Shown: in pieces, positions 2,386 to 21,882 of the stretch | Layout of the letters: each line of letters begins with the position of its first letter | Numbering within the stretch: the first letter of the stretch is position 1 | Origin: Xylanibacter ruminicola 23 | GTDB taxonomy: Bacteria > Bacteroidota > Bacteroidia > Bacteroidales > Bacteroidaceae | Reading direction: 5' to 3' | DNA length: 32,000 bases | Assembly (NCBI RefSeq): GCF_000025925.1 | Contig: NC_014033.1 | Coordinates: forward strand, 420,001-452,000 | The notes under the pieces: model-generated | Database searches by the model: none | What the model saw: the letters and a program-made list of their open reading frames with translations, nothing else | Told to the model about the DNA's origin: nothing | Program-made: the position numbers and the translations under genes

Positions 2386-3126
2386 ATGAACATAGAAAAG
2401 AAATTACCCAGACCCAGTGTAGAGAAACTGAATGAATTTGATGAACTATGCAAGCAAACGCATGCCACCGACCTTAGCAGCGAGCAGTATCAGAGTCTGA
2501 TTGACCAGGTGAACGACATCATTGTTTCGTACGATTTGAGCAACTATGTGTTCGAAAATCCTGCCACAGGCAAGAAGGGCGTGAAAAACCCTGCGGGTGT
2601 GGTGCTTGTTCCTGCCGATTACGATGAGTTCAATTTCGTAGGCGACCACAATATTTTCACTGTGTCTCATATTGCTGCCAAGAGGGGTGGTAAGTATGGT
2701 GTTGTGACTACCGACGGCACAGGCAAGGCGCTTTGTGACTTCCGCTTTGACTATCTGCAGTGGTATCCCTACGCAGGACTTTATCTGGCACGTTGGGACG
2801 GTGTCGAAGGAAAATTTGGAATGGTCAACAAGGATGGTAAGGTGTTTATTCCTAACGTGTTGACCAAGCTCTATGATCCATGGAACGACTTCATGCTCCT
2901 TGAGAGCGATGGAAAATTTGGTGGTCTTGATATCAGTACATTCTTCTTTGTAATGCCCGAGTACGACAATATTGATGCAGAACCTGACGAACTCGTTGTT
3001 TTCCACAAAGGCGGCGTCGAAGGCTACATTGTTGAGGAGACTGGCGAATTTATTACCAAGGAACAGTATGAAGACGATGAGCAATATGTCGATGCTTACG
3101 TTTACAATACGTATGTTAACCTCTAA
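2386..3126 (+). CDS. WG-repeat (KWG-like beta-repeat) protein
   Basis: The motif G-K-[YF]-G-x-[VL]-x(2)-D-G recurs: GKYGVVTTDGTG, GKFGMVNKDGKV, GKFGGLDIS, GVEGYIVEETGE. There is an acidic C-terminal tail and no signal peptide is evident. Confidence 0.7.
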   Translation: MNIEKKLPRPSVEKLNEFDELCKQTHATDLSSEQYQSLIDQVNDIIVSYDLSNYVFENPATGKKGVKNPAGVVLVPADYDEFNFVGDHNIFTVSHIAAKRGGKYGVVTTDGTGKALCDFRFDYLQWYPYAGLYLARWDGVEGKFGMVNKDGKVFIPNVLTKLYDPWNDFMLLESDGKFGGLDISTFFFVMPEYDNIDAEPDELVVFHKGGVEGYIVEETGEFITKEQYEDDEQYVDAYVYNTYVNL

Positions 3127-3155: not shown

Positions 3156-3189
3156 TTTCCCCTCAAATCACCAAGGATTTGAGGGGAAA
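3156..3189 (-). terminator. Repeated hairpin element, copy 2 (inverted relative to 273-304), between convergent genes
   Basis: The stem is identical (TTCCCCTCAAA/TTTGAGGGGAA). It sits between the WG-repeat stop (3126) and the Macro-TIR stop (3193). Confidence 0.6.
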
Positions 3190-3192: not shown

Positions 3193-4323
3193 TTACTGTG
3201 TTCGTAGGATATAGTCTAGACTTGTTTTCAGTTCTTTTTCAAATTCCGGTTGAATTGAATAATCAATCTGATTAACATTTACCAAATCCATGCGTAGTCC
3301 ATCACCGAATGGTGAATGGTCTAACATAATAGGAATGATATTTTTCTTGCATGTTATTGCATATTTTACTTCATTCTTAACATAAACGGATTTATTGGCT
3401 TGCTCAGAAGACATAAAGATAACCACTCTGGTGTTTTCGATGGCTTTTTCTATTACTTCTTTAAAATCATAACTACTGAATATTCCATTTTTGTCAATCC
3501 ATGTTTTAATACCCCATTTTTCAATAAGGTCTTTTACCGCAAAGGCTTTTTCAGATTCTTCACGCTTATAGCTGATAAAAACTTCGTGATCAGGGTTCTT
3601 ATAATAGGCTAGGTCTTCTTGTGACAGTTCGATAGGTTTCCTATCATACTCAACAGAATTGTTTTCTTGTTCCTTTATGAAATTGGCAATTGCAGATTTA
3701 AAAGCAAATATTTCAAAGATGTCAAATGCACTCATATCAAGTATGCTATAGATATAAACTTCCACTTCAATAGGTCGGTTTGTTTTTTGCAGTTGATTGA
3801 ATAACTCATCAGCCATTATTTCAACTACTGTTTTATACGGCATATGTGCAGAACCTGAACCAATAATGGGGAAAGCTATGGAACTAATCTGTAGGGCATG
3901 TACTAACTGGAAACATCTGTCAATACAACTTCTCACAATGTTATTAACTTTATCAGCATTTGGAACGTTTAATCCAGCCCAAGTTTCACTCAGATATTTG
4001 TCATCAATAGTAAGACAATGGAAAATGTGTTTCTGACTAAGCTCGCCAGCACATGAAACAACAACATTCCCGATTGTCGCAGGTAGTTGTTTCTGGGCAT
4101 CTTCTTGAATATTTTTGCCACCAGCGTGACTTATGGCCATTGAAACACCCCCACTCATAGTTAAAAGGGTATCATCGCTACTGACAATAACTTCAGATGT
4201 AGATTTTGTGATATCGCCAAACTTAATTGTTACAGAAGATGCATTGTATTTGTATGTACGACTTTCCTTTTCCATCTTTCTATTATCTTGATATTTTTTC
4301 CCGCAAATATACACCTTTTCCAT
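3193..4323 (-). CDS. Macro domain - TIR domain fusion protein
   Basis: The N-terminal half matches a macro fold pattern: IKFGDITKSTSEVIVSSDDTLLTMSGGVSMAISHAGG ... HIFHC ... SIAFPIIGSGSAHMP. The C-terminal half matches bacterial TIR: VFISYKREESEKAF...GIKTWIDK...VVIFMSSEQANKSVYVKNEVKYA...IIPIMLD, including the candidate catalytic Glu. The start is ambiguous among 4356, 4323 and 4275. I trimmed it to 4323 because 4331-4395 is the conserved intergenic repeat R3. Confidence 0.75.
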   Translation of the reverse strand: MEKVYICGKKYQDNRKMEKESRTYKYNASSVTIKFGDITKSTSEVIVSSDDTLLTMSGGVSMAISHAGGKNIQEDAQKQLPATIGNVVVSCAGELSQKHIFHCLTIDDKYLSETWAGLNVPNADKVNNIVRSCIDRCFQLVHALQISSIAFPIIGSGSAHMPYKTVVEIMADELFNQLQKTNRPIEVEVYIYSILDMSAFDIFEIFAFKSAIANFIKEQENNSVEYDRKPIELSQEDLAYYKNPDHEVFISYKREESEKAFAVKDLIEKWGIKTWIDKNGIFSSYDFKEVIEKAIENTRVVIFMSSEQANKSVYVKNEVKYAITCKKNIIPIMLDHSPFGDGLRMDLVNVNQIDYSIQPEFEKELKTSLDYILRTQ

Positions 4324-4330
4324 CTTTTTT

Positions 4331-4395
4331 CCAAGAAAAATCGGAAAAAGTTGCAATAATGTGTTAGATTATCCCCTTTTCGTGTACCAATATAG
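4331..4395 (+). repeat. Cassette-leader repeat R3 (diverged copy)
   Basis: CCAAGAAAAATCGGAAAAAGTTGCA...GTTAGATTATCCCCTTTTCGTGTACCAATAT. It lies in the divergent intergenic region between the Macro-TIR gene and the gene at 4421. Confidence 0.75.
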
Positions 4396-4420
4396 TATAG
4401 AGTGTTAATTAAATAACGTA

Positions 4421-5383
4421 ATGCGTATGATAGTAGATACAATGACCGACCTCGAATTGCTGTATGAGGTAAGAAAAGATTATGAAGAGTTCAGCGCTTA
4501 TTGGTTTACTTTGTGTCATAACCCTGTATATAAGAAACGAATGAAGTGGGGTAGACCAAAAGATGGCAAATTTGTCATTCGAATCAACGAATGGAAGTCT
4601 GCTAGAGGAAACCTGTACAATTTTGTTATTACGATGTCAGGTTGGAATGATTTTAAGAAAGGTAAATTCGAAACGTCTACTACAACATTCTTTAAGCGTA
4701 ATAAGGCTCTGAATGCTATCAGGTTGATGTTTTATCAGAATGACGTGCCTGGTATTGAGATTTTTACCTCTCATTTTATCGATAGGTATAATCTGCGTTT
4801 CCTTCATCAGCCATACCTTTCTCGTAAAGCAGCCTTGCAGCTATATCTGGATAATAACCATAAAACTGTCATCACGAGCTTCCGCTCCCCCAAATACGAT
4901 TGTAATGTGATGGCAGCCGCTACCGAAGGTTATTCATTGGGTAAATTCGAAAATGACATCTTGTTGCATAAGACGTTTGTTTCTCGCGATATGCTCTATG
5001 GCAACCAGTTCGCTGATGCTGATCTTCTTGACGAAGTTTTTGCCGACTCTCATGATGGCCCAAAATCTAACATATTCACTCTTGTTGATGACTTCTCAGC
5101 CTTGTTAAACAAAGAAAAGACCGTCCCTACGATTGCTGAATTTGATCAATTTTTTGAGTTGGCTTCAAAGTACAAAGCCAAATTGGAGGATTTGGAGTAT
5201 GAAGGCAAGGAGTTCGACTTGGAATCACAGGAACTGCAGAATCAGTTTTTGTTGATGTGTGCAGGTATCGATTGGTCTAAGGGCCAGGCAAAAGATGAGG
5301 ATGGCAATCTGATTAATTTCCCTATGATGAAGCAATTGTCTATGATTCTGGGAGCCAATAACAACCTTTGGGGCAACCAGTAA
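4421..5383 (+). CDS. Hypothetical protein (320 aa), no recognisable motif
   Basis: Long ORF preceded by repeat R3 and divergent from the Macro-TIR gene. The start could be 4421, 4427 or 4442. Confidence 0.7.
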   Translation: MRMIVDTMTDLELLYEVRKDYEEFSAYWFTLCHNPVYKKRMKWGRPKDGKFVIRINEWKSARGNLYNFVITMSGWNDFKKGKFETSTTTFFKRNKALNAIRLMFYQNDVPGIEIFTSHFIDRYNLRFLHQPYLSRKAALQLYLDNNHKTVITSFRSPKYDCNVMAAATEGYSLGKFENDILLHKTFVSRDMLYGNQFADADLLDEVFADSHDGPKSNIFTLVDDFSALLNKEKTVPTIAEFDQFFELASKYKAKLEDLEYEGKEFDLESQELQNQFLLMCAGIDWSKGQAKDEDGNLINFPMMKQLSMILGANNNLWGNQ

Positions 5384-5996: not shown

Positions 5997-6031
5997 CAGC
6001 ACGATATGTAACTTAAAACCCTTTGAAAGTT

Positions 6032-6304
6032 ATGGCACGATGTCCTAAAACTGCAGCCGAGGCCTTTAAACGTTTAGACCGCAGGCTTACAAAACAAGAG
6101 AAACAGCAGATAGCTGAAGCCGAAGATGTGGTTGAGTTCCACTTTGGCCTTGGTATGTGGATTCGAAACTATTGGATCTATACTGGCGAGAGCGAGAATC
6201 TCGAGTCGCTTCTTAAAGATTTGGGCGAACCAGAGTTTCTGATTGGCGATATGGCTTCATCTGCCATTCTCGACGCATATCAGAAACATCTGAGAGGAAA
6301 GTGA
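6032..6304 (+). CDS. Small hypothetical protein (90 aa from ATG 6032) with an HFGLGMWIRN motif; possibly DUF6794-like (unverified recollection)
   Basis: The ORF track begins at TTG 6023 and the first ATG is at 6032. The gene sits directly downstream of the promoter above. Its stop codon lies just upstream of repeat B and falls within the similarity that extends about 10 nt upstream of the repeat. Confidence 0.55.
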   Translation: MARCPKTAAEAFKRLDRRLTKQEKQQIAEAEDVVEFHFGLGMWIRNYWIYTGESENLESLLKDLGEPEFLIGDMASSAILDAYQKHLRGK

Positions 6305-6306
6305 TA

Positions 6307-6344
6307 CCTTTCCTGTACATATGAATAAATGAATAGTTGAATAG
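6307..6344 (+). repeat. Copy B of the ~36-bp direct repeat (CCTTTCCTGTACATATGAATAAATGAATAGTTGAATAG)
   Basis: It aligns with copy A (237-272) and copy C (26340-26376). Similarity to A extends about 10 nt upstream (GTGATACC). Confidence 0.85.
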
Positions 6345-6394
6345 TTTTCAAGAAAAATAGCTTATTCAAGAAGAACTTAATAAAAGAGAAATGT

Positions 6395-8407
6395 ATGCCA
6401 ATATTAGAAAAAAACTGTAAATGGATATTTGGGCACCAAGACGACGTGAATGTTAAGGGACCTAATAATTCCACAATGATGTCTTTCAAGGATGATAATT
6501 TCCATTCCTTAGTAAGAGAATCCATCCAGAACTCTTTGGATGCTGTTGACGACAAAAACCAACCAGTTAATGTTTCATTTACTTTGAGACAATTTGATGG
6601 AATGGAGTATCCTTCGTTCTTTGATTTATACAAGCATATACAAGGATGTTTAGACAAGTTCCCTGTACAGGGAGAACCTCTTTACAGGCCTATGCTACGT
6701 TATTTTGCCTCATCACGATTGAATCAGAGTATTAATTATTTGAAAATTACTGATTCCAATACTAAAGGTATGGAATACGATAAAAAAAATGATAATTCTG
6801 GATTCAATAGATTTATAGCTGAAGGTGTCGCTCAAGATGCGGAAGGGGCAGGTGGAGCATTTGGATTTGGCAAGAATGCATTTTGGTCTTTATCACCAAT
6901 TAGTACGGTCTTCGTCTCTTCTCAAGCAAAGAATGGGGAGGCTTGTTTCGCTGGAATATCAAAATTGTGTACGCATGTTGTTGATGGAGAACTGTTACTT
7001 CCTTATGGAAAATATACATCAAATGGAGAAGTCGTTCTGACAAAGAAAGAAGATATTCCAGAAACCTTCACACCAAAGGCTACTGGAACGTCTGTATTTG
7101 TATTAGGAATTGATTCGGTAGATGAAGATGCTTTAATTAAGGCGGTTCTTCGAAATTTCTGGATGGCCATCTATAAAAAACAACTCACCGTAAAGGTTGA
7201 ACAGAAAGTAATAGATAGTGACCATCTGGAAGATCTTATGTGTCATTATTTTGATGAAGAAAATCCGAATCTCGATAAGAATTACGAATACAATCCCAGA
7301 GTATTCTATGAGATTGTTAGAAATGCAGAAAAAAGTGTTGATGGTTATAAAATCATCGAAGAACCTGTTCTGATGGATGGCAAGAACTGCGTGTCTAAGC
7401 TATATATTCATCTGAAGAATGATGCACAAGGTCAGGTCGTCTTCATGCGAAGTCAGATGATGACTATTTTTACAGAGCGAAGAAAGTGCAAAGGAGCTGA
7501 AGGTGTGTTCGTTTGTGATTCGGAAGATGGCAACAGGTTCTTAAGAGAACTAGAAGATTATACTCATAGTTCATGGTCAAGAAAAAACTATGGTGCAAGA
7601 AACCATACTAACCTAATCGTGGCATCTCGTGCACTTAAGGCAATTGACACTTTCATCCTAGATTCTGTTGCGAAGGAATTACAGCAGGGAGCGCAGGAGA
7701 CTGAGCAGGTGGCAGGTCTTGATAAGATTCTGACTATCCTGACTCCAAAGGGTGTTGATGACGAATCCAAGAAAGACGATATTGTTGATTTGGAGAATTA
7801 TAAGGACAAACCCAATCCCCCCAAAAAAGATAAGAAAGAAAAGCCGAAAACGATTCGTCAGCCCCGTCAGACTAAAGCAAAATTCGATCCACAAGGACGT
7901 CTGCGTTCGAATAGTGGAGGCAGAAGGAAGGTACGCCCTATAAAACCTGGTCCTGTGAAACCTGGATCACTAAAAGGTAAATCAATCGAATCTACAGATG
8001 GCAAAATGGGTATTTATGCAGTACCTATAGATGTAAGCTATCGCACTTGGAGTGAAGAAGACGGCAATGGTACTGTTTGGCATGTAGTCCGTTTGTTCTC
8101 TGATAAGGATATTGATAACGCGTTGGTTCAGCTTTATGCCGTCGACGAAGAAGGAAAGAAGATGGGTTTGAATATTATTGATGCCGGAGAGTATGATGTG
8201 CGCCCGGGTGAAGAATTCGTCGATTCTACTGATTTTGATGATTCTGAAACTGATTCCGAATCTACTACAAAGCAGGTAAACAACGCAATCTCCGGTGTTT
8301 CAATTCAAGCTAATATACCAAAAACGATTAAGGTGCGTTTTAATTCTAGTTTAAAATACTCACTAAGTATTGATACCGATAAAATAGAAGATAGCGATGA
8401 AGATTAA
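6395..8407 (+). CDS. GHKL-superfamily (Hsp90/MORC/HATPase_c_3-like) ATPase with a K/P-rich linker and an uncharacterised C-terminal domain
   Basis: N-box: RESIQNSLDA (E42, N46, D49). G1-like: ITDSNTKGM. G2-like: GAGGAFGFGKNAFW. A basic low-complexity linker (KDKPNPPKKDKKEKPKTIRQPRQTKAK...RRKVRPIKPGPVKPGSLKGK) spans about 7786-7980. The C-terminal domain ends in an acidic stretch (DSTDFDDSETDSES). Confidence 0.75.
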   Translation: MPILEKNCKWIFGHQDDVNVKGPNNSTMMSFKDDNFHSLVRESIQNSLDAVDDKNQPVNVSFTLRQFDGMEYPSFFDLYKHIQGCLDKFPVQGEPLYRPMLRYFASSRLNQSINYLKITDSNTKGMEYDKKNDNSGFNRFIAEGVAQDAEGAGGAFGFGKNAFWSLSPISTVFVSSQAKNGEACFAGISKLCTHVVDGELLLPYGKYTSNGEVVLTKKEDIPETFTPKATGTSVFVLGIDSVDEDALIKAVLRNFWMAIYKKQLTVKVEQKVIDSDHLEDLMCHYFDEENPNLDKNYEYNPRVFYEIVRNAEKSVDGYKIIEEPVLMDGKNCVSKLYIHLKNDAQGQVVFMRSQMMTIFTERRKCKGAEGVFVCDSEDGNRFLRELEDYTHSSWSRKNYGARNHTNLIVASRALKAIDTFILDSVAKELQQGAQETEQVAGLDKILTILTPKGVDDESKKDDIVDLENYKDKPNPPKKDKKEKPKTIRQPRQTKAKFDPQGRLRSNSGGRRKVRPIKPGPVKPGSLKGKSIESTDGKMGIYAVPIDVSYRTWSEEDGNGTVWHVVRLFSDKDIDNALVQLYAVDEEGKKMGLNIIDAGEYDVRPGEEFVDSTDFDDSETDSESTTKQVNNAISGVSIQANIPKTIKVRFNSSLKYSLSIDTDKIEDSDED

Positions 8408-9263
8408 TAGTTCTTTTCCCCATCCAGTATTAGGGGTTAATAAAGGTGTTATGCCAGATCTTGAGGACGATGCGTTGCAGCTTGTCTCGATAGATGAAAC
8501 TTCCGATACATATGTATATAATTTTGCATTAAAGCAAAATAATGACCAGATTACGCAGTATATAACAGAGAAGCGTGCTAAGTATGTATGCGAGGTTGAT
8601 TGTGTTAGGACTTTTTATAAGGACACGTTTTCTTATGAAACTTCTGATATCAAAGTCGAAATTAAGAAAGCAAATGTTACAGGTCATGTTGATTTCTATT
8701 TTTATATAGTAACCAAGTTTGGACTTCCTGCTTATACAAATAGGTTTAATGACGACTATCGTGATCCTGACACAGGCGCGATGCCTTCGTTTAAGTTGGA
8801 TACCGGAGCTGTTCTCGCTGCGTTTGGGAAATATAGCGACGACGTAAATACTCGTTTTAATAACAAGCCCGACCTGAAATCATTCATACAGGTAGTTAAA
8901 CGTCAAGATACTGAGAAGAATGTTGATATCACGTTGACTAACGATACCATCAACATAGAGCTACCTGTGGATATGTTTACCGACTTCGTTGCATTTAACC
9001 AGGATCAGTATAGAGGCATTTTCTACACATCTTTGATTTTTAATGCTCTTGTAAAAGGCATTTTGAATCTTGAAAAGAAAGAAGACTCTACATGGGCTGA
9101 TAGTATTAAGGCTATGGTCGAGGCGAGTCCTGATAAATACAAAGGCTTGTCATTAGATGAACCAACTGATGCTGTTGATATTGCAACTATTATGCTATCA
9201 AATATAGCATATGGGTCACCTTACGATTTGTTATTTAAGTGTATTAATGAACTCCAAGTATAA
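8397..9263 (+). CDS. Hypothetical protein (288 aa), second gene of the GHKL operon
   Basis: The ATG at 8397 overlaps the upstream stop (8405-8407) by 11 nt. I recognise no motif. Confidence 0.7.
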   Translation: MKINSSFPHPVLGVNKGVMPDLEDDALQLVSIDETSDTYVYNFALKQNNDQITQYITEKRAKYVCEVDCVRTFYKDTFSYETSDIKVEIKKANVTGHVDFYFYIVTKFGLPAYTNRFNDDYRDPDTGAMPSFKLDTGAVLAAFGKYSDDVNTRFNNKPDLKSFIQVVKRQDTEKNVDITLTNDTINIELPVDMFTDFVAFNQDQYRGIFYTSLIFNALVKGILNLEKKEDSTWADSIKAMVEASPDKYKGLSLDEPTDAVDIATIMLSNIAYGSPYDLLFKCINELQV

Positions 9264-9274
9264 CAGGAATAGAT

Positions 9275-10081
9275 ATGGAATTACAAAGAATTTTTACACC
9301 AGAATATGTCAATCAGTTGGTAAACGACATAAATCCCGATAACTATAAAGGCGATATTGCTATTTATAATGCCAATGAAGTTAGGCGCTTAAAGGGAGTA
9401 GAGAAGCCAGATGGGTTATTGGAGAAAATGCTGAATGCTGCTGATGAATATGAAGCAGCTATACATCTGTACGAGGCATATAAAAGCATCAGTCCAGTTG
9501 TTGCTGCCAGCCGCTCGTTCTGGATATATCTTACGCATGTTGATTTGTTTAAGTATGTTAAGCGCGAATGGCCCTATTTGGAGATTTACGAGGTAGATCA
9601 TAAATTCAGAAAACAGAAAAGGGGTGATAAACGTTCAGAAACAGATATGAAAAAATATATTCTCGATCATTGGATGATTTCCCCTAATGGTTTAATGAGA
9701 ACTTCATTGATGAATCTGTGGTGGTCTGTATATCTTACTGTCGATGAGTCATTGGGTGATGACCATAAATACGATCTTACGAAGGTATTCTTCAGTAATA
9801 ACGGTATGCGTACTCGAAGATTGGGAACAGGTCATCTTGGCCGCAATAAAGAAGCTCTTAAGGGTATACTTACTTTTATGAAAGACAATCCTGATGTTTT
9901 CGAAAGTGGTTTGGAGAATCGTATGATTTGGATAACTCGCCATTTTAATCTAATTGGCGGTACAAAGCCTTTGGCAAATCTACCTTACACTTTCTTTAAG
10001 CGCGAACTTGAAAAGAATCGTGATCTTTTGAAGGGTATTAGCAAACGAGAAGATGTGATGGGACCAAATGCTATTATCTAG
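9275..10081 (+). CDS. Hypothetical protein (268 aa), third gene of the GHKL operon
   Basis: It starts 11 nt after the upstream stop. The protein is W-rich and basic with no recognised motif. It is followed by a hairpin at 10084-10116. Confidence 0.7.
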   Translation: MELQRIFTPEYVNQLVNDINPDNYKGDIAIYNANEVRRLKGVEKPDGLLEKMLNAADEYEAAIHLYEAYKSISPVVAASRSFWIYLTHVDLFKYVKREWPYLEIYEVDHKFRKQKRGDKRSETDMKKYILDHWMISPNGLMRTSLMNLWWSVYLTVDESLGDDHKYDLTKVFFSNNGMRTRRLGTGHLGRNKEALKGILTFMKDNPDVFESGLENRMIWITRHFNLIGGTKPLANLPYTFFKRELEKNRDLLKGISKREDVMGPNAII

Positions 10082-10298: not shown

Positions 10299-11030
10299 TT
10301 ATTTTTTCTTTTTCTGACGCATAGAATCACCTTTTAATTCAATTTTATTCGCATTTGACACCAATCTGTCCATGATGGCATCGGCCAGAGTGGGATCTCC
10401 TATGTAGTCATACCATTTATTAATAGGCAGCTGAGAGACGATGATAACGGACTTCCTCTCATACCTTTCTTCTAGTATCTGCAGCATGGCCAGACGTGTG
10501 TTGGTGTCCATTGGTTGCAGTCCAAAGTCATCGAGTATAAGCAGGTCGTTCCGCTCAAGTGAAGTGATCATTTTCAGGAAGGTACCATCGAGCTTGCTGA
10601 GTGCCACCTTCTCTACGAAGCTGTTCATATTGAGGTAAGCCGTCCTGTATCCTAACATACAAGCCTGGCGCCCTAAGGCGCAGGCAATAAAAGATTTTCC
10701 ACATCCGCACTTGCCCTGTATGAGCAAGTTCTCATGGCGACGTATAAAGGAGCAGTCTGCAAATGCTGCAAGATCGTCCTTCGTAAAGTTACGGTCCGTG
10801 CCGCAGATAACGTCCTCTATCAGTGCGGTATATCTTAATCGACTAGTCTTGAGATACATCTCTGTCTTGCGGTTCCTTCTGTCCTGAGCTTCTGCCTCTG
10901 CCAGCCTGGCTATAGTTGCTTCCATTGCTGGGCGGTTCTGTACTGGCAGACTGAGGATTGACTCAAAAGCATCTGCCATGCCCTTGAGTTTGAGTTCTCT
11001 GAGTTGTATAACGGTTTCTTGTGAGTTCAT
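10299..11030 (-). CDS. istB: IS21-family helper ATPase IstB
   Basis: Walker A reads LIQGKCGCGKSF and Walker B reads LLILDDFG. It lies immediately downstream of istA. Confidence 0.9.
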   Translation of the reverse strand: MNSQETVIQLRELKLKGMADAFESILSLPVQNRPAMEATIARLAEAEAQDRRNRKTEMYLKTSRLRYTALIEDVICGTDRNFTKDDLAAFADCSFIRRHENLLIQGKCGCGKSFIACALGRQACMLGYRTAYLNMNSFVEKVALSKLDGTFLKMITSLERNDLLILDDFGLQPMDTNTRLAMLQILEERYERKSVIIVSQLPINKWYDYIGDPTLADAIMDRLVSNANKIELKGDSMRQKKKK

Positions 11031-11046
11031 AATTATAATTTTGATG

Positions 11047-12600
11047 TTAGATATTAAATGCTTCTGCTCCCCTTACGTAGTCGTTCTGGGGCATCTGTGA
11101 TACAGGTTCCTGATCGCCTGCCATGTCGAGGTTCTTCTCCAGGATATTCTTTATCATCGTATAGTTGACAGACCTATATCCAGCAAGCCTTTTGCAAGCA
11201 TTCTCAAGTCTTATACTGCCATATCTGCGATTCAGACTGAGTACGCCATGACATGAGCCATAATTCTGCTCTACATGTCTGCTACGCTTAAGAATCGCCT
11301 CCATAGCCTGTCTTGTATAAGGCCCGATTTCTTCCGACTTTTCCAGGAAGTAGGCTGCATTGCACGCCTTTGTACGCATGTATTCCAGATGCTCGGGAGG
11401 CATATCTTCATCATGGGTAAAGGGATCCTTGATGCCATAACGGTCGTGCGTACTGATACGTGTATTGCCAGCGTAGACCTCCACAGTGTCGATATCCCAT
11501 ACGACGGTAAGATGTTGTCCTACATACTGATATGGCACGCTATATTTACGGCCTGCCACTTGTACATGATAGTTACCTGACAGCTTGACCTCTTTGCGAT
11601 AACGGAAGCGGAAAGGAGTATCAGGCAGTTCTCCAAGAGATGGTTTCTCTTCTGCCTCAAAAATGTCAAAACGACTTCTGCCTGTAACTTTCGATGGTTT
11701 TGAGTTAAAATCATCCAGCAGTTCTGAAATACGGCTGTTCATGCTGTTCAGGTCACTGATAACCTCATCATGAAGAGGCGCATAGATAGCGTTGTAGATT
11801 TTCCTGACTGCACCTTCTACAGAGCCTTTATCGCGAGGTTTCCTTACGCGACACGCTTCAAGCGTTGTGTCGTAGTATGCAGCCCATTCTAGCGCAGCGT
11901 CAGTGAAAACAGGTTCGTAACGGTCGTTCTTCTTTACCCATTGCTTCATGTTGTCACTCTTGGCTCTGCGCACTGTCCCTCCAAAATAGCTGAAGGCATC
12001 AGATAAACCTCCAAAGAAATACTCCATAGAGGCGTCAGGAAGTGCCTTTGCATAAGCCATTCCACTGAAAGGAAGCGTGCAGACTAACACCACTACGCTG
12101 GTGATTTCGCCTGTCAGAGGGTCTGTTAGCCACAAGGCATCACCAGCAAAGTCAATCTGCATCTCTTCACCAGGCATATAGGTGTTATGAAAACTCAAGT
12201 TGTGGGCATACTGATAGTCACGGATAGCTTTCTTAAACTGAGTGTAACCATAGCCGTCGGGATGTTCACGCTTATAGTTCTCATGGAGATGCTGTATGGT
12301 CAGATAGCGGTTATGGGCCAGATCTGACACATAATCAGGAATCAGACCATCGAGGACAATTCTGGCATCAGATGGTGCTGATTCGGGTCTTGTTGACTTG
12401 AGGAACGACTCAAGGTCGACCTCGTTCATGCGGCCTCCATCTGCATACGACAGATGTCTTTCATCAGCCGCCTTCTTGTACTTGGCAAGTACGCCACGTC
12501 CCATGTGCAGTTGTCCACAGATTTCGCGGTGTGGGATGCTTGCCGCCAGCATTTGAAATGCTCTTTTTAACTTGCTCATTGTTACATTTTGGTTTGCCAT
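11047..12600 (-). CDS. istA: IS21-family transposase IstA (HTH + DDE)
   Basis: 517 aa. The N-terminal HTH-like region reads SIPHREICGQLHMGRGVLAKY and the central integrase-core region reads MQIDFAGD. Gene order and size are typical of IS21. Confidence 0.9.
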   Translation of the reverse strand: MANQNVTMSKLKRAFQMLAASIPHREICGQLHMGRGVLAKYKKAADERHLSYADGGRMNEVDLESFLKSTRPESAPSDARIVLDGLIPDYVSDLAHNRYLTIQHLHENYKREHPDGYGYTQFKKAIRDYQYAHNLSFHNTYMPGEEMQIDFAGDALWLTDPLTGEITSVVVLVCTLPFSGMAYAKALPDASMEYFFGGLSDAFSYFGGTVRRAKSDNMKQWVKKNDRYEPVFTDAALEWAAYYDTTLEACRVRKPRDKGSVEGAVRKIYNAIYAPLHDEVISDLNSMNSRISELLDDFNSKPSKVTGRSRFDIFEAEEKPSLGELPDTPFRFRYRKEVKLSGNYHVQVAGRKYSVPYQYVGQHLTVVWDIDTVEVYAGNTRISTHDRYGIKDPFTHDEDMPPEHLEYMRTKACNAAYFLEKSEEIGPYTRQAMEAILKRSRHVEQNYGSCHGVLSLNRRYGSIRLENACKRLAGYRSVNYTMIKNILEKNLDMAGDQEPVSQMPQNDYVRGAEAFNI

Positions 12601-12676: not shown

Positions 12677-12830
12677 GGTACCGATTCGAGCGCTACAGCG
12701 GTACCGATTGGTGCGCTACGCTGGTACCGTTTGGAGTGCTATGATGGTACCGATTCAAGCGCTGCGGTGGTACCGATACAAGCGCTGCGGTGGTACCGAT
12801 ACAAGCGCTATGATGGTACCGTTTCGCCGA
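12677..12830. repeat. IS21 subterminal repeat array, istA-proximal end (7 copies, exact 23-bp period)
   Basis: GGTACC cores lie at 12677, 12700, 12723, 12746, 12769, 12792 and 12815. Each is followed by GAT or GTT and a GCGCT-containing spacer. Confidence 0.85.
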
Positions 12831-13344
12831 TATTATCATCTTCATCTATTTTTGGGTAGGGGCGTGTAGTTATTCTATGATCCTGAAGCCAAATGTGGTT
12901 AAGTGTGAATGCAATGGATTCTATGGTCTTCTCTCGCTTCTTTGGGGATAACTCACATTCCCATACTGTGATGCAATGCCATCCCATTTTTGCCAGTTCG
13001 CGTTGTTCCTCCTTGTCTCGTTCTTTGTTCCTTCTGATTTTCGCCACCCAAAACTCTCTATTCGTGTTTGGGATCCTACAACATGCACTATCTGTTATTA
13101 ACTCATCTCTATTGGTTTGTAGCAATGCCACATGGTGCCCATGCCAGAAGCAGCCGTTTACAAAGATGCAAGTACGATACTTTCTTAGTACAAGGTCGGG
13201 ATGACCAGGCAACCGCTTATGGTTCAGCCTGTATCTGAATCCTCGTTTCCATAGCCCACGTCGCACAACCATCTCTGGCTTCGTATCCTTCGAGCGGATT
13301 GCTGCCATATTCTGATGGCGTTGTTGAAGTGAGAGGTGATCCAT
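12808..13344 (-). CDS. vsr: Very-short-patch repair endonuclease (Vsr), with its 3' end replaced by the IS21 terminus
   Basis: Motifs: RSKDTKPEMVVRRGLWKRGFRYRL, LPGHPDLVL, IFVNGCFWHGH. The last 10 codons (DDNIGETVPS*) are read from IS sequence. Joining the flanks across the TSD restores ...KIDEEDFPMLKAAEEMTNK* in frame, ending at 10115. Confidence 0.85.
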   Translation of the reverse strand: MDHLSLQQRHQNMAAIRSKDTKPEMVVRRGLWKRGFRYRLNHKRLPGHPDLVLRKYRTCIFVNGCFWHGHHVALLQTNRDELITDSACCRIPNTNREFWVAKIRRNKERDKEEQRELAKMGWHCITVWECELSPKKREKTIESIAFTLNHIWLQDHRITTRPYPKIDEDDNIGETVPS

Positions 13345-13351
13345 ACAGATT

Positions 13352-15670
13352 CTATGCTTCTATCAGTTCTTTACCCTTTTTGAAGATAGGGGTTCCATAC
13401 CATTTCTCTTCCCAACCTTCTTCCAGTGTGCCTTCTTTACGTCTTTTCTCCATTTCTTCTATTCTGGCTGCCTCAATGATCTTCCTTAAATTAATTGGCT
13501 TGAAGTTACGTGGCATCTTCTTTATATTGTATACCACATAGTTTCCATCAGGATTGTTGTAACTAATCTTTCTCATATACTCTTCGCCACGTAGGTTATG
13601 GCCGTCAATACGATAAACCTCATACGAAGAATAATCTGTTCCAATCTCATATAATAATAGGTATTTTGCTGAAACAACATCTGGATCAACTTTCTTCACC
13701 ATACCGCTACGCTGAGACTTGTTACTATTTCTGCGGATGTTATACATCATATTTTGATGAATCCAATCCTGCTGGTTCTTATCTTTACGCCAACCTCCAA
13801 TCAGGAACACTTCATTTGCAACATTCTCAAATTCTATAAATTCATTAGTGGATGAGGTGGCACTATCCAGTTCAACCTCCAACTGGTATAATTTGTTTAA
13901 TTCGTCTGTAGGATTGGTATTCAGAGTATAGTGGCGTATGATAAAGTCCTGACTCAATTCTGCTAATAGCCTATGATTGTCCTCATAGAATTTCGCATTG
14001 TCTTCTATCCCAACATACATGAATTTCTCGTCGCTGTAAGGACGGAACACCTTGCCTATACTACTACGAAAATGCTTCTCAATAGCCCTATGCATTCCGT
14101 CAAGTGTCCGCTCGTCATTCTTGCCTTCGTCAGTATCGACCTTTGGCTTTAGCTGAAGTGAAAAGAAAGCATAATCATTCTTCAAGAATGATAATACATT
14201 CTCTCTGAATTTCTCCTTTGTTCTTTCCTTAAATTCTTTTTTCAGACCTTCGTTACTTTGTGCGTAAAGTGACAAGACAAAGAGGAAATTGATGTCGTAG
14301 TGTTGCAAAAGAAGAGTGTCTCTATCAAATAGGCGATTCTCAAAATGTCTTATGCTCTTTATCTCATCCCTTGCCTGAAGCTTATCCTCATAATACTCGC
14401 GATCCTCTTCTTTCTCGCTAATACGTGCCGAGATAAAGAAATTGGGCGTTATGCTGTATCCGTCAGTATCTTCATCCCTATAAATAAGATACGTCTTACC
14501 TATATTCTTACGTCGACCTTGTGCATCTTTCTCGTCCTCAAGGAATAAAGATAAATTATGTTGTATTACATTTCTTGCATACGTATATTGCTTGTATTCA
14601 GAATATTCTGCTACAGGCGCACCAATACCGTAATATTTTGAGTCACCAATATAGTATATTTTGTTCTTGTTAATCAAACCTTGGTATGCATATATATGGT
14701 CAACTCTCTTGCCGTCTTCCTGTGCTTTCAAGTCTCCAATGTCAAGTCCCTTATCTGATAGCAACTCATCAACCATAGACTCGAACACAATATGATAGTC
14801 TGTCACAATAAGGAAATCTTTATATTGTTTGTCGCTATGAATGCTTGTCGCCCTTTCAAAGAAATTATTACAAAGATTCCATAACTGGAGATCTTTGTCT
14901 GAGAAGTACTTGTATCGTATCTGTTTTAAACGAACTTCTCCATAATAATCTATCCAGTTTTCAAACTCCACATCAGTTAACAGTTCATAGTTGTAATTCA
15001 CTGTCACCTCAAATCCGAACACTCTCTTCATGTAGTTCAAGATGGAGTAGAATATTACCAACAGTTCTTCATCAAAGTTTACTTGTCTTTTCTTGTTTAC
15101 AAGGTCAAGATATATTGGAGTACCGTCTTGTATTATAGCATTTTCACGGCTTACGGTCTTTGTCCAATTTATCTTGTTCATTCCACTATGCATGTTCTTC
15201 ACTATAAAGGTGAAGTAATCAGGATTTTCTTCTTGGAACTTCTGCAAAGAAAGCATAATGTCCAAATAGGTGTTCGACACCTTGTCGCCTTGCATGCCAA
15301 CGGCACTGATGTCCTTCATCTTTACGATACCTGAGTCGGGATTCAACCTCACAAACTCTTTTAATCCCCGATATAACCAGACAGTAAACTTGTATAGGAA
15401 CTGATAGTCGCTTGTACCATACTCTGTGTTTTCCTGCAACTTCTCTACATCCACCACATCATTAGGGTTGTACCTGCCAAATAGCAATCCATTCTCGCTG
15501 AGTACGACTTTAGGTAGGAAGAATACACAATCACCAAGTTGTGCGCTATAGTAATAGCCCACATAGTTCTTGCTTTTCGTGCCATCCCTCCACGTCAAGT
15601 CGCCCATTAGTCGTCCAAGCGAGTCAATTGCTTTGGGACTGTAGTGATAACCCTCTATCAGTAGTTTCAT
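13352..15670 (-). CDS. McrC-like / LlaJI R2-type restriction endonuclease subunit (772 aa)
   Basis: It overlaps the stop of the upstream McrB-like gene by 4 nt (ATGA). A PD-(D/E)xK-like segment reads YYIGDSKYY. It is much larger than E. coli McrC as I recall it. Confidence 0.7.
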   Translation of the reverse strand: MKLLIEGYHYSPKAIDSLGRLMGDLTWRDGTKSKNYVGYYYSAQLGDCVFFLPKVVLSENGLLFGRYNPNDVVDVEKLQENTEYGTSDYQFLYKFTVWLYRGLKEFVRLNPDSGIVKMKDISAVGMQGDKVSNTYLDIMLSLQKFQEENPDYFTFIVKNMHSGMNKINWTKTVSRENAIIQDGTPIYLDLVNKKRQVNFDEELLVIFYSILNYMKRVFGFEVTVNYNYELLTDVEFENWIDYYGEVRLKQIRYKYFSDKDLQLWNLCNNFFERATSIHSDKQYKDFLIVTDYHIVFESMVDELLSDKGLDIGDLKAQEDGKRVDHIYAYQGLINKNKIYYIGDSKYYGIGAPVAEYSEYKQYTYARNVIQHNLSLFLEDEKDAQGRRKNIGKTYLIYRDEDTDGYSITPNFFISARISEKEEDREYYEDKLQARDEIKSIRHFENRLFDRDTLLLQHYDINFLFVLSLYAQSNEGLKKEFKERTKEKFRENVLSFLKNDYAFFSLQLKPKVDTDEGKNDERTLDGMHRAIEKHFRSSIGKVFRPYSDEKFMYVGIEDNAKFYEDNHRLLAELSQDFIIRHYTLNTNPTDELNKLYQLEVELDSATSSTNEFIEFENVANEVFLIGGWRKDKNQQDWIHQNMMYNIRRNSNKSQRSGMVKKVDPDVVSAKYLLLYEIGTDYSSYEVYRIDGHNLRGEEYMRKISYNNPDGNYVVYNIKKMPRNFKPINLRKIIEAARIEEMEKRRKEGTLEEGWEEKWYGTPIFKKGKELIEA

Positions 15671-18102
15671 GCCTGAGTCTCGTTGTTGCTGTTTTGTTCT
15701 TCGTTTACATCTTTGTTTTCGTTATCGGCTTTAGTCTTTGGGGCCTTCGCCATAACGTTCTTAACAAAAACACTCATAGTATCCACATTCACTGATCCGT
15801 CATCATTGTAAAAACTTTTAAACGTAATCTTTTCAGTTTTTCCATCTTTGTCTTTCTTGTCGAATATCTCAGACTTGAACCCGTAGACTTTAAACACATC
15901 ATTCCACAAATAGAATACCACCTTGTTGACAAACGTTTCTTTCTTTACCACACCATCTTGAGCCTTACAGAAGAAGAATCCCAATTTCTTGTCCTCGCTG
16001 TGTGTTGTAATATCAACGACCTCATTAATACCTTGTATGAAGGCCCACCAAGAGTTGTCTCCAAGTCCTTCTATCTGCCAATTCATTAGGTCGCCATTTT
16101 TGTCCTTGCCCTGAGCTATTGGCGTATACACCCAATCCCAACGGCGCTTGAATGCTGAATCAATGGGGAACAAACTTTGGTCGCTGGTGTTCATTGTTGC
16201 CCATATATAGAAGTTTGGTGGAAATAGTAGTACACGACCTTCTTGTACATCTTCAGAAAGCGTCTTACCATAGTTACTTGTATACTCAATTACACCATCA
16301 ATATCAATATCTTTAGATAACATGAATTCTCCTTCCTCGTTGAATGCTGTTTTAATGGCATCACGCAAATCAGAATCTGCCTCAATGGGATAAACGGAGA
16401 ATCCGTTGTCAGCACGATCTAGGAGTTGGAAGATGTCGCCGAAAATCTGAGCGCAGTTCCCACGATTTATTTCCTCAATAACCAAGAACTGAGGATCAAT
16501 TTGTTCATTCGCATCATCATTAATTACAGGAGTACCCCCTTCTTCTATTATTTGTTTAAGTTTTTCCCATGCTTCATCAAAATCTTTACTGTATCCCTTT
16601 AGAATACCTATGAGTGTACTTTCTAATTTTGAAACCTTTGTTTCATCTGACTCATAAAACTTACGTTGCAGAGTTGCTCTCTTTTTGCCTCGTGCTTCAA
16701 CATTAATAGTTAACGTCTCATTATCATCAGTAACACCTTTGATAATATATGTCTGCGTCTTTTGAACTACGACACGTCTTTTTTCATTAACAGCTGAGAC
16801 AAGTATTTCCCAACCATGCTCAAAACTATTCTCAGAGCAATCTGCAATTTTATTTACTATCCAATTAGCTATAGCATGTTGGACAGATTTTCCTGTTTGA
16901 GGCCCTGTTGGCAAGCCAAATATACCGTTGTTCCATAGATTGGGCCATTCTTTCAATACTAAAGACTTGGGAAACTGGAATTCTCTTGATAATATTAACT
17001 CATAATCACCTACAGAGTTAATAACATAACGACCATTGTCTGTGTTAAATTCACGAATTGTAGAAGTACTTACTATCGAACAACCATCCGAATATTTTTT
17101 CCATGCACCAAGATATGCTTTAAGGAATGCTTGTTTAACAAACTGATATGTAATTATGGGCTCCTCAATAGGCTTCCCGTTTTCAGTCAATGGGCCTTGC
17201 GCACCATAAACTCTACCTTTCCCAATAGATGGCTTATATGCTCCTACAAATGTTGAATAGTCACTGTCGGGATGAAATGTAGTTCGGACAACCGCCTTAC
17301 CTTCAGTCTGTTTGCTTATTTCATGGGACTTTCCGGTTCCAGGGGCACCATAGAAAATTTGTTGTAAGGGCACTTCTTTTGTGAGCAAAAATTGGGGAGT
17401 AACAATGTGAGGTGCATTCTTTACAACGTTCATTGCTTTTTCAATATCACCAATATGCAATTCGTCTCTATTTCTCATATACCACAAAAAATATTCAGGT
17501 TTAAACAATAATAAATTAAATGAATTACTAGCAGTAAATTTTTTTTCATGAAGATAAATCCCCTTGATATAAGCTTCCCTTGCATTTTCTCCATATGTTT
17601 GGAAAACCGAAGTCGGGCTGATCTTCTCGGTTTCTGATTTACATAACACTTCTGCAGGCATTCCTGCAAAAAGAACATTTTTGCAATTCTTGTCTTGCTT
17701 ATATATTCCAATACAATAACATTCTAAATTCTTTAATTCACCATTTGCATCTCGAAAATTTGTGGCAGCTTTGTATCTTGCAAGATCAGTACTCCAAGAG
17801 GTTCCTGGAGTAAGCTGTGTGCGTAGTTCGTCATCATGAGATCTGCCAGCACCGCCCTCATAAAGAATAAAGGTATACACAAAGAAGGTGTTTTTACTAA
17901 ACTCGTCGCTAGCAAATCTTCCTTTTAAAAGTGCATCTGTTCTTGATCCTTTGCCTTTCTTAGACAAGACTTCAAATTTGAAAAGGCGCGGGAAGTGTTT
18001 CTCCATTTGAAAAAGGAACTCTTCGTCTGCATTGTAGTCAGTAAAAGGTTTACCTTCTATCAATGGATAATCTGAACTATATGTGTTAACTATCTTGGGC
18101 AT
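15667..18102 (-). CDS. McrB-like AAA+ GTPase / LlaJI R1-type restriction subunit (811 aa)
   Basis: Walker A is GAPGTGKS (aa 252-259). Other motifs: TTFHPDSDYSTFVGAYKP, Walker B/McrB signature FLVIEEINRGN (aa 539-549), ATMNTSDQS, AFKRRWDW. Confidence 0.85.
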   Translation of the reverse strand: MPKIVNTYSSDYPLIEGKPFTDYNADEEFLFQMEKHFPRLFKFEVLSKKGKGSRTDALLKGRFASDEFSKNTFFVYTFILYEGGAGRSHDDELRTQLTPGTSWSTDLARYKAATNFRDANGELKNLECYCIGIYKQDKNCKNVLFAGMPAEVLCKSETEKISPTSVFQTYGENAREAYIKGIYLHEKKFTASNSFNLLLFKPEYFLWYMRNRDELHIGDIEKAMNVVKNAPHIVTPQFLLTKEVPLQQIFYGAPGTGKSHEISKQTEGKAVVRTTFHPDSDYSTFVGAYKPSIGKGRVYGAQGPLTENGKPIEEPIITYQFVKQAFLKAYLGAWKKYSDGCSIVSTSTIREFNTDNGRYVINSVGDYELILSREFQFPKSLVLKEWPNLWNNGIFGLPTGPQTGKSVQHAIANWIVNKIADCSENSFEHGWEILVSAVNEKRRVVVQKTQTYIIKGVTDDNETLTINVEARGKKRATLQRKFYESDETKVSKLESTLIGILKGYSKDFDEAWEKLKQIIEEGGTPVINDDANEQIDPQFLVIEEINRGNCAQIFGDIFQLLDRADNGFSVYPIEADSDLRDAIKTAFNEEGEFMLSKDIDIDGVIEYTSNYGKTLSEDVQEGRVLLFPPNFYIWATMNTSDQSLFPIDSAFKRRWDWVYTPIAQGKDKNGDLMNWQIEGLGDNSWWAFIQGINEVVDITTHSEDKKLGFFFCKAQDGVVKKETFVNKVVFYLWNDVFKVYGFKSEIFDKKDKDGKTEKITFKSFYNDDGSVNVDTMSVFVKNVMAKAPKTKADNENKDVNEEQNSNNETQA

Positions 18103-18108
18103 TATGCA

Positions 18109-20910: not shown

Positions 20911-21306
20911 TTATTTCGGCAGCCATTCCTTGGGAATCTTGCATTTGCAGTCGCTAAAAGGATCTATTTCAATGGAATCACCGTACATGTCGAATACTTT
21001 ATCGAAGTCGGCTTCGCGGTAGTCTTCGATATCGTCTTCGTCGAGCTTGATATCGTTGCCATAATTATTCATGCCGTCGATGAGCAGTTCAAGGAATAAT
21101 GGGTGGAAGATGGCATCCCAAAATTTGTCATACAGTTCTGGGGTTTCATCGGATAGGAGTGGCAATAGGCTTTCGTCAGCTCTTTCTGCGTTGTTGGCTA
21201 TTACCTCCTTTATTTGGGTTGCTTCTTCGTCGGTGAAATCTGCCTCGACCTCAATGTTTTTGTCGCTGTAGGTCAGTGGTATTACTACTTGAAATTTGTA
21301 CTTCAT
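20911..21306 (-). CDS. Hypothetical, strongly acidic protein (131 aa)
   Basis: By my count roughly a quarter of residues are D or E, against about 13 K or R. It is preceded by a -7 box TATCTTTG (plus-strand 21343-21350). Confidence 0.55.
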   Translation of the reverse strand: MKYKFQVVIPLTYSDKNIEVEADFTDEEATQIKEVIANNAERADESLLPLLSDETPELYDKFWDAIFHPLFLELLIDGMNNYGNDIKLDEDDIEDYREADFDKVFDMYGDSIEIDPFSDCKCKIPKEWLPK

Positions 21307-21394
21307 TATAGTAAGATATTTATGTTACTAGTAATCTGCCCACAAAGATAGGGAAATATTTCAAAATAACGAAACAATCCCTTGAAATTTTGAT

Positions 21395-21435
21395 AAAAAA
21401 AACAGGCTGATATCCGGGTTAGGGATATCAGCCTG
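21395..21435 (-). terminator. Rho-independent terminator of the gene at 21442-21855
   Basis: A 13-bp perfect stem CAGGCTGATATCC/GGATATCAGCCTG (21403-21415 and 21423-21435) is followed on the minus strand by T8 (21395-21402). It coincides with the compositional boundary. Confidence 0.8.
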
Positions 21436-21441
21436 ATTGAG

Positions 21442-21855: not shown

Positions 21856-21882
21856 TAAAGATTAAAGATTAAACATTTTTTT
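21856..21882 (-). repeat. Tandem 7-nt repeat (AATGTTT/AATCTTT, about 4 units on the minus strand) abutting a start codon
   Basis: The minus strand reads AATGTTT AATCTTT AATCTTT AATGTAC ATG. The same heptad array occurs at 29611-29653. Confidence 0.7.

Follow-up and report, generated by a model that had tools for sequence, protein, structure and literature searches.

The window analyzed here is a 32,000-nucleotide stretch of Xylanibacter (Prevotella) ruminicola 23 (contig NC_014033.1, positions 420,001 to 452,000), and all coordinates below refer to it. On its minus strand lies a gene, hereafter the Macro-TIR gene, whose single polypeptide product has a Macro domain at its N terminus and a TIR domain at its C terminus. 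The fusion is real, non-classical and uncharacterized, and it is tentatively interpreted below as a TIR NADase that would be gated by an ADP-ribose (ADPR)-type ligand. The gene, its domains and its immediate flanks were laid out as follows.

3156 to 3189, unstranded: hairpin with a 14-bp stem between the convergent stops of the Macro-TIR gene and a gene for a 246-amino-acid protein; likely a bidirectional terminator
3193 to 4323, minus strand: Macro-TIR gene (RefSeq WP_049769056.1, 376 amino acids; GenBank ADE82101.1, 360 amino acids)
3196 to 3588, minus strand: TIR domain, residues 246 to 376 (Pfam TIR_2, ThsB_TIR and TIR; PDB profile matches)
3370 to 3372, minus strand: codon of E318, the predicted catalytic Glu, inside VKNEVKYA (3358 to 3381) and aligned with E77 of 8z92
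3589 to 3732, minus strand: interdomain linker, predicted as a helix (residues 199 to 221) and a low-confidence segment (residues 224 to 230); variable, with indels, across the family alignment
3733 to 4266, minus strand: Macro domain, residues ~20 to 197 (Pfam PF01661, Foldseek and PDB sequence matches)
3847 to 3873, minus strand: FPIIGSGSA, residues 151 to 159, phosphate-binding loop 2, aligned to P(A/S)ISxGxxG(F/Y)P of PARP14 and OiMacroD
4141 to 4185, minus strand: VSSDD-x6-GGVS, residues 47 to 61, distal-ribose/catalytic loop 1, from translation and alignment
4207 to 4218, minus strand: GDIT, residues 36 to 39, with its Asp aligned to the adenine-N6-binding Asp (alignment to GDIT of TTHA0132 and OiMacroD)
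4324 to 4420, unstranded: divergent intergenic region of 97 bp, presumed promoter region, reaching 4276 if the start is at 4275

Counted from the ATG at 4323, the open reading frame (ORF) encodes 376 amino acids, and a TTG at 4356 is an upstream alternative start that would give a longer product. The real start is probably the ATG at 4275 (M17), yielding 360 amino acids, because the N termini of homologues coincide with M17, the GenBank entry ADE82101.1 has this length, and DNA homology with the 76%-identical relative at locus L002 stops at 4286. A sigma-70 scan was applied to the upstream region, with Bacteroidota promoters lying outside its coverage. The encoded protein is identical to WP_049769056.1/ADE82101.1, for which the existing labels are generic only ("TIR domain-containing protein" and "Appr-1-p processing enzyme domain protein"), and no model reached its cut-off in an NCBIfam scan. 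The motifs quoted in the initial annotation, which had been made from sequence alone, were all found in the translation: FGDIT (35 to 39), VSSDD (47 to 51), GGVS (58 to 61), FPIIGSGSA (151 to 159) and VKNEVKYA (315 to 322).

The presence of both domains in one protein, as that annotation had proposed, was borne out by Pfam scores well above the cut-offs. TIR_2 (PF13676) matched residues 248 to 364 (E value, 4e-17; 63.4 bits against a cut-off of 28), and ThsB_TIR (2e-7) and TIR (1e-6) were likewise above theirs. Residue E318 aligned with E77 of the SPARTA TIR-APAZ protein 8z92, which we take to be the catalytic residue, within a common SS...N/K...V..E motif; the Glu picked out initially is therefore correctly placed. 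It is conserved in all 27 homologues compared and in 79 of 84 non-gap subfamily members, and this retention across the subfamily argues that the TIR domain is under selection as an enzyme. PADLOC models scored SAVED-TIR best (7e-11), followed by SPARTA Aga_TIR (8e-9) and ThsB (2e-6), and the nearest PDB profile matches were to SPARTA TIR-APAZ (~1e-10) and SARM1/TIR-1. By these matches the TIR domain appears closest to effector TIRs that consume NAD+, ahead of ThsB, contrary to its earlier description as producer-type. No PDB chain matching Macro and TIR together was identified in the searches.

For the Macro domain, PF01661 matched residues 51 to 170 (E value, 7e-16; 58.7 bits against a gathering score of 22). 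Structure prediction, which had been proposed for this protein, was carried out with AlphaFold2 (AF2) using 27 homologues as input and gave a mean pLDDT of 85, with two compact soluble domains joined by a helix and a disordered stretch. Foldseek comparison of the N-terminal domain in this model with OiMacroD, macroH2A1.1, PARP14 macrodomains 1 to 3 and TTHA0132 returned target-normalized TM-scores of ~0.8; OiMacroD ranked first, and PDB entries 5fud, 1zr3 and 3q6z were included among the matches at this level. When the PDB was searched with the family profile, the best Macro stretch was that of PARP14 macrodomain 2, a non-catalytic reader. No hydrophobic N-terminal segment or transmembrane helix was evident on inspection of the translation, for which no dedicated predictor was used, and a Pfam scan of the protein found no secretion-related domain.

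The binding motifs of the Macro pocket, GD(I/L), the GGV loop, FPxIGxGxA and FH, are nearly invariant. Among 107 subfamily members, G36 was kept in 103 and D/N37 in 99, and in loop 2 P152 was kept in 106, G155 and G157 in 104 each, and A159 in 98. At the distal-ribose site, S48 and S49 are invariant or nearly so and H102 is present in all 107; D50 was found in 101 of 105 and D51 in 97 of 105 (7 with Asn), and S61 in 102 of 107. D51 aligned with N30 and S61 with D40 of OiMacroD, residues for which the mutants N30A and D40A are named in PDB titles, so that SSDD does stand in place of NAAN, as first noted. With both catalytic residues (Asn and Asp) replaced in the alignment, a canonical MacroD hydrolase is ruled out, and all NCBIfam MacroD/YmdB equivalog scores fell far under their cut-offs. 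Since the binding motifs are kept and the catalytic pair is replaced, the pocket looks competent for ADPR binding and unlike that of a canonical MacroD enzyme. The near-invariant VSSDD/GGVS pocket marks a distinct macrodomain subfamily.

The fusion was found to be neither rare nor peculiar to X. ruminicola 23. A word-indexed search recovered 85 clusters at 90% identity, nearly all of them Macro+TIR proteins of ~360 amino acids that came from metagenomes of the rumen and gut. When each GTDB species was represented by a single genome, scanning gave 66 loci, with ~50 full-length genes/species in Prevotella, Bacteroidaceae, Alistipes, Alloprevotella, Paludibacteraceae and other Bacteroidales, and one full-length gene each in metagenome-assembled genomes (MAGs) of Lentisphaeria and Kiritimatiellia. 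Macro-only matches came from cyanobacteria, Chloroflexota, Flammeovirga, Acidobacteriota and one Heimdallarchaeota MAG, and no full-length homologue was found in the phage and plasmid collections. The family comprises at least 64 clusters at 50% identity from about 50 species, centered on gut and rumen Bacteroidales. No description of a Macro-TIR fusion was found in the full texts of the literature library searched; an earlier in silico mention in Burroughs et al. 2015 is possible.

Domain architectures were surveyed with an exhaustive HMMER search using the Macro domain alone, which returned 2272 representatives at an E value of ≤1e-3 and 54 at ≤1e-30; the Pfam content of the 107 best non-giant representatives was then tabulated. 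TIR_2 was present in 64 of the 107, the TIR-like DUF4062 in 13 and a CHAT protease in 3, with FHA in 2 and a kinase, a metallopeptidase, EAD1/EAD7 and DUF676 scattered at 1 each. In 20 individually sampled proteins the Macro domain lay directly N-terminal to a TIR, TIR-like or CHAT module. Extra domains were added further toward the N terminus, and the arrangements included kinase-Macro-TIR, peptidase-Macro-TIR, TIR-Macro-TIR (P0071 and P0123), Macro-DUF4062-TIR and Macro-CHAT. The contig of one Macro-CHAT relative, P0154, is only 2.6 kb long, too short for its gene context to be informative.

Giant proteins of 1000 to 3100 amino acids with four or five tandem macro stretches (P0119, P0125, P0142, P0152, P0158, P0171 and others) were also among the best matches of the Macro search. 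Their length and the number of matched stretches suggest that these include multi-macro proteins resembling PARP14. The high rank of these tandem-macro giants, together with PARP14 and PARP9 as the closest solved structures, hints at a close evolutionary link between the bacterial VSSDD-type subfamily and the macrodomains of macro-PARPs, a relationship that bears on the bacterial origin of eukaryotic ADPR readers. A different deployment of the Macro domain was seen in Coleofasciculus (cyanobacteria), in which STAND-like AAA_35 ATPases, with or without WD40 and GUN4, carry it at the C terminus (L074:3658-7377, L076:3963-8537 and L078:6693-8537).

Within the window the Macro-TIR gene is monocistronic, with the convergent 246-amino-acid gene (2386 to 3126) on one side and a divergent 320-amino-acid gene (4421 to 5383) on the other. 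Around it, the following genes and clusters were identified.

454 to 2214: GmrSD-family type IV restriction enzyme (GmrSD_N and GmrSD_C)
6395 to 10081: PDC-M33 A/B/C, a PADLOC candidate system (670, 288 and 268 amino acids, the last being DUF6339)
10299 to 12600: IS21-family element, with an IstB-like ATPase (10299 to 11030) and an IstA transposase (rve and Mu-transposase C; 11047 to 12600)
12808 to 20321, minus strand: restriction-modification (R-M) cluster with a Vsr mismatch endonuclease, a LlaJI-like endonuclease (weak match), an MTaX1 + AAA_5 (McrB-like) protein and two tandem C5 cytosine methyltransferases (double-Dcm)

The GC content is 35 to 40% in the first 21 kb (about 0.37) and jumps to 49 to 58% at ~21000. 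The low-GC stretch around the Macro-TIR gene is a defense island, as GmrSD, PDC-M33, the LlaJI-like R-M genes with Vsr, the IS21 element and low GC occur there together. No tRNA was found at the island border. A small DUF6794 protein precedes PDC-M33 A/B/C (whole stretch, 6023 to 10081), and the IS21 element sits between the PDC-M33 and R-M clusters.

Profile scans of the window confirmed that no SIR2, SLOG or transmembrane (TM)-Macro gene adjoins the Macro-TIR gene. The divergent gene at 4421 to 5383, which the initial annotation had singled out as a possible partner, was rejected as such: it had no Pfam, PADLOC or NCBIfam match, formed a cluster of its own in the set of 860 ORFs taken from 81 loci, with no homologue beside the 48 other Macro-TIR loci compared, and is unrelated to the gene downstream of Macro-TIR in the 76%-identical relative. 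The gene at 2386 to 3126 was likewise rejected, being convergent and separated by the terminator; its sole homologue lies in L002, 3 kb from Macro-TIR and in another arrangement.

Neighborhoods were compared by all-against-all BLASTP clustering of the ORFs of the 81 loci, which had been seeded by two family peptide patterns and for which the ORF calls were crude (ATG starts only, longest non-overlapping); 49 non-redundant full-length loci were retained for counting. The most frequent neighbor cluster occurred in at most 6 of the 49. DNA similarity between the window and L002 was confined to the ORF (3200 to 4286), and since this is the only ORF common to both, Macro-TIR behaves, by this comparison, as a single-gene cassette. 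In L002 the gene is flanked by genes for GmrSD and Mrr; the GmrSD gene there is co-directional with Macro-TIR and is on the opposite strand in the window.

A second TIR gene was immediately adjacent to Macro-TIR in 19 of the 49 loci and no more than three genes away in 23, and these neighbors were co-directional with Macro-TIR in 34 of 36 cases, with short gaps. Their products differ in architecture (TIR-WD40, TIR-Sel1, TIR-MORN, kinase-TIR and TIR-only). In roughly half of the loci, among them the window and its three closest relatives (L002, L001 and L015), no TIR gene lies nearby. RyR-domain genes (PF02026), most of which encode ~95 to 100 amino acids and lie just downstream, stood next to Macro-TIR in 8 of 49 loci; counted out to ±8 kb, the number was 14. 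A May 2026 preprint describes phage RyR-domain proteins that cleave or sequester 2'/3' cyclic ADPR (cADPR) (PMC13232231). Host RyR copies next to TIR genes may act as the cell's own means of buffering or converting ADPR signals, and their recurrence suggests that bacteria, too, use RyR-domain proteins on their own side.

The reading that we favor, although we would place it somewhat short of an even chance, is that Macro-TIR is an ADPR-ligand-gated TIR NADase acting as a self-contained abortive-infection effector. The C-terminal TIR domain would be the killing enzyme, hydrolyzing NAD+ through E318, and the N-terminal Macro domain would be a binding module not of the MacroD type, with its adenine, diphosphate and ribose pocket kept and its hydrolytic Asn/Asp pair lost. 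Binding of an ADPR-containing ligand to the Macro domain could lead to self-association, by which the TIR domains would meet and form composite active sites, as in other TIR NADases, and the active TIR would then collapse the cellular NAD+ pool. The source of the ligand would not be tied to a dedicated partner gene; the likeliest sources would be ADPR or derivatives from other TIR/NADase immune proteins, or ADP-ribosylated molecules arising in phage infection.

The steps that we infer here (ligand binding, oligomerization, NADase output and an anti-phage role) are favored because the enzymatic TIR is conserved and of the depleting-effector type, because the Macro pocket is kept for binding with the MacroD catalytic pair lost, and because the gene is stand-alone, mobile and situated in a defense island. 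A precedent is offered by type II Thoeris, in which the Macro domain of ThsA binds ADPR, IAD or His-ADPR, has no hydrolase activity and oligomerizes on its ligand (PMC11204291; bioRxiv 2024.01.03.573942). Fusion of the same Macro subfamily to other killer domains, such as CHAT, also favors gating. For Macro-CHAT, a Macro domain serving as editor of an NAD product of the partner domain fails as an explanation, and the arrangement fits a sensor gating interchangeable killers, like SAVED and CARF. The clustering with diverse TIR-sensor and RyR genes is loose, which suggests a common ADPR-type metabolite as the ligand rather than a private signal.

Several points weigh against a ligand-gated NADase. 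TIR sequence similarity is an unreliable divider of signal producers from NAD+ depleters. The invariance of D50, D51 and S61 matches that expected of catalytic residues, and given the invariant acidic pair D50/D51 the Macro domain may have non-canonical hydrolase activity; activity without the MacroD Asp is seen in PARP14 macrodomain 1 and viral Mac1. With an AF2 pTM of 0.56, the relative orientation of the Macro and TIR domains is undefined. Other TIR or RyR genes are absent from the 32-kb window, so the ligand source is not encoded beside Macro-TIR. Finally, the same Macro subfamily is joined to EAD1/EAD7 adaptors or placed at the C terminus of AAA_35-WD40 proteins, positions that the Aravind group would reportedly call "effector" rather than "sensor".

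A more specific form of the ligand-gated NADase, which is speculative and which we consider improbable, is a partner-free "ADP-ribose alarm amplifier" sensing linear ADPR or a close derivative. Linear ADPR would be the breakdown product common to NAD+-cleaving immune enzymes, the protein's own TIR included, and where a host RyR gene is present, whatever RyR-type cleavage of cADPR yields would be a further input to the Macro domain. A first NADase event could then set off positive feedback ending in all-or-none NAD+ collapse. Such a design would explain the lack of a dedicated partner, the frequent though non-obligatory adjacency of heterogeneous TIR-sensor and RyR genes and the strict Macro-NADase fusion. 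As a variant, the Macro domain could read phage-catalyzed ADP-ribosylation and guard against phage ADP-ribosyltransferases. If the Macro domain does gate the TIR, ADPR-type ligands and the Macro fold would join SAVED, STING, SLOG and CARF as sensors for NAD+-depleting effectors, and TIR-Macro logic would be compressible into one polypeptide without an operon partner.

Of the other explanations, the main one, though unlikely in our estimate, is that the TIR domain makes an ADPR-derived product on infection (ADPR, a cADPR isomer or a conjugate) that the Macro domain then trims, hydrolyzes or reverses. With its non-canonical Asp-Asp/Ser site, the Macro domain would serve as an internal off-switch, a proofreader or an antitoxin in cis, much as ring-nuclease activity does in CARF effectors or DarG does against DarT. 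The (near-)invariance of S48, S49, D50, D51, S61 and H102 is what catalysis would demand, a canonical Asn occupies position 51 in 7 subfamily members, and the strict Macro-then-TIR order with tight coupling would suit a two-step enzyme. The Macro domain is also near MacroD-type hydrolases (OiMacroD as top Foldseek match; matches to TTHA0132 and YmdB) and gives a weak DarG match in PADLOC (E value, 1.7e-4). However, neither residue required by MacroD chemistry is kept, the CHAT and TIR-like DUF4062 fusions offer no partner-derived NAD product to edit, the TIR is closer to depleting effectors than to ThsB, and a producer would require a downstream effector, none of which is conserved nearby. Among the three functions offered in the initial annotation (a self-regulated NADase, a signal-degrading or proofreading module, or a stand-alone effector), the wider evidence favors sensor plus effector, with the editing or proofreading role as a less probable alternative.

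It is also rather doubtful that Macro-TIR is a trans-dependent, Thoeris-like component inactive alone, whether as an effector for a specific signal from ThsB-like TIR proteins, which in X. ruminicola 23 would be encoded elsewhere in the genome, or as a ThsB-like sensor/producer itself, with its signal activating an effector encoded elsewhere. The frequent, closely spaced and co-directional TIR neighbors would fit this, as would the RyR genes (cADPR binders/cleavers) often found nearby, and the TIR-Macro-TIR fusions argue for functional coupling of a second TIR. Yet the loci without a nearby TIR gene, the window and its three closest relatives among them, make up about half, the neighboring TIRs do not form one orthologous family and look like independent sensor-effectors arrayed together, and the gene moves as a single-gene cassette. 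Least probable, with very little to recommend it, is a non-immune role as a housekeeping or stress enzyme of NAD+/ADPR metabolism or as a TIR toxin that carries a Macro accessory domain and is aimed at other bacteria or at a host. The old "Appr-1-p processing" label and the fact that some bacterial TIR proteins are virulence factors could be counted in its favor. Against it stand a patchy distribution marked by horizontal transfer (Bacteroidales, with MAGs of Lentisphaeria and Kiritimatiellia), the low-GC island packed with restriction and candidate defense genes and an IS element, the differing context between close relatives, and the lack of matches in plasmid and phage collections. The Pfam scan gave no secretion domain, and no obvious N-terminal hydrophobic segment was seen by inspection, with no signal-peptide predictor used.

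Compared with described systems, the closest functional analogues of a ligand-gated Macro-TIR would be TIR-SAVED, TIR-STING and SIR2-SLOG, together with the TM-Macro effector of type II Thoeris. In type II Thoeris (ThsA/ThsC 2TM-Macro plus ThsB), TIR and Macro chemistry are likewise found in a defense context, and a Macro domain without MacroD residues receives a TIR-made ADPR derivative, oligomerizes and activates the attached killer. In Macro-TIR, by contrast, the Macro domain is fused to a TIR rather than to transmembrane helices, the predicted killer is an NADase and not a membrane pore, the Macro domain is of another subfamily with the VSSDD signature, and a conserved two-gene operon was not found among the 49 loci. 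ThsA_Macro (PF20016) matched only partially, at 16.4 bits against a cut-off of 25, and touched 2 of 107 subfamily members (E value, ~5e-4); membership was rejected. The NCBIfam model of Thoeris type III ThcB4 scored 34.6 bits against a cut-off of 220. The fusion falls outside the described Thoeris types I to XI, in agreement with the non-classical layout recognized at the outset: the gene is monocistronic and has no conserved producer or effector partner (at most 6 of 49 loci). In the survey that defined Thoeris types V to XI, TIR proteins standing alone were discarded ahead of the analysis, and this would account for the absence of the family from that work.

The CBASS proteins TIR-SAVED and TIR-STING and the type I Thoeris ThsA (SIR2-SLOG) also combine a nucleotide-signal receptor and an NAD+-destroying domain in one polypeptide, and TIR/SIR2 effectors are switched on by ligand-induced oligomerization or filaments (PMC11204291). 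Macro-TIR differs in its sensor (Macro, for an ADPR-type ligand), in its order (sensor N-terminal, TIR C-terminal) and in having no cyclase or ThsB in an operon. CBASS membership was rejected, as the PADLOC SAVED-TIR model matched only the TIR part (243 to 324) and no SAVED, STING or cyclase domain was found in the protein or its neighbors. SPARTA TIR-APAZ and SARM1/TIR-1 have the closest solved TIR sequences, with the SS...E motif aligned, and both are assembly-dependent NAD+-consuming effectors; Macro-TIR has neither an APAZ/pAgo partner nor ARM/SAM, and identity is low (E value, about 1e-10 with the family profile). Matches to SPARTA were limited to the TIR and no pAgo was found in the window, so membership was rejected. 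PARP14/PARP9, macroH2A1.1 and OiMacroD/TTHA0132 come nearest in macro fold and sequence and share the adenine and phosphate loops; relative to PARP14/OiMacroD-type macrodomains, the change from NAAN...GGGVD to SSDD...GGVS, the fusion to TIR and the bacterial defense context set Macro-TIR apart. DarTG was rejected as well, the DarG match being weak and partial (residues 131 to 175) and no DarT-like neighbor being found in profile scans.

SpbK (PMC12847820) is likewise a TIR NADase that stands alone, carries a fused sensing domain and acts by abortive infection; it senses a phage protein through a non-Macro domain, however, its homology to Macro-TIR lies in the TIR only, and the PADLOC spbK match was weak (E value, 0.0025). 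Macro-TIR extends known designs, namely sensor-gated TIR NADases and Thoeris-like logic, instead of overturning them. The observation made in the initial annotation is confirmed and its interpretation partly supported, and Macro-TIR is a plausible, widespread candidate for a single-gene defense system in an under-studied phylum. The phage defenses of gut and rumen Bacteroidales are poorly studied, and the gene escapes operon-based Thoeris searches.

Further features of the neighborhoods were recorded. Stand-alone, 3NRT-like RyR genes beside Macro-TIR were located at L015:7780-8082, L046:9163-9444, L053:9801-10088, L056:9185-9472, L073:3425-3709 and L025:4250-4531. Co-directional multi-TIR arrays flank Macro-TIR in L004, L007, L009, L012, L028, L030, L044 and L045, in which the TIRs are fused to WD40, Sel1/TPR, MORN, FGE-sulfatase or kinase plus transglutaminase partners or are TIR-only; NAD synthase, trypsin, kinase and CHAT-TPR genes are sometimes included, and such islands of TIR paralogues are typical of Bacteroidales. 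A conserved module of Macro-TIR with a ~900-amino-acid protein and a ~500-amino-acid TIR protein (L004 and L009) was considered and rejected, as the large proteins are unrelated and the 500-amino-acid ones share TIR domains only.

In the high-GC part of the window (~21000 to 32000), a BT4734-like primase-type protein (21900 to 24347), an HU-HIG protein (26640 to 27191), a DUF2201 vWA-like metallopeptidase with an AAA_5 (MoxR-like) ATPase (27427 to 29609) and an AAA ATPase (30390 to 31922) were identified. A recurrent gene set was seen near Macro-TIR in L038, L039, L045, L047, L058 and L066, consisting of clusters c5 (~185 amino acids), c4 (~320 amino acids, X-RyR), c1/c10 (~700 to 800 amino acids with a Slo-like RCK domain) and c28 (~160 amino acids), and may represent a separate multigene system.

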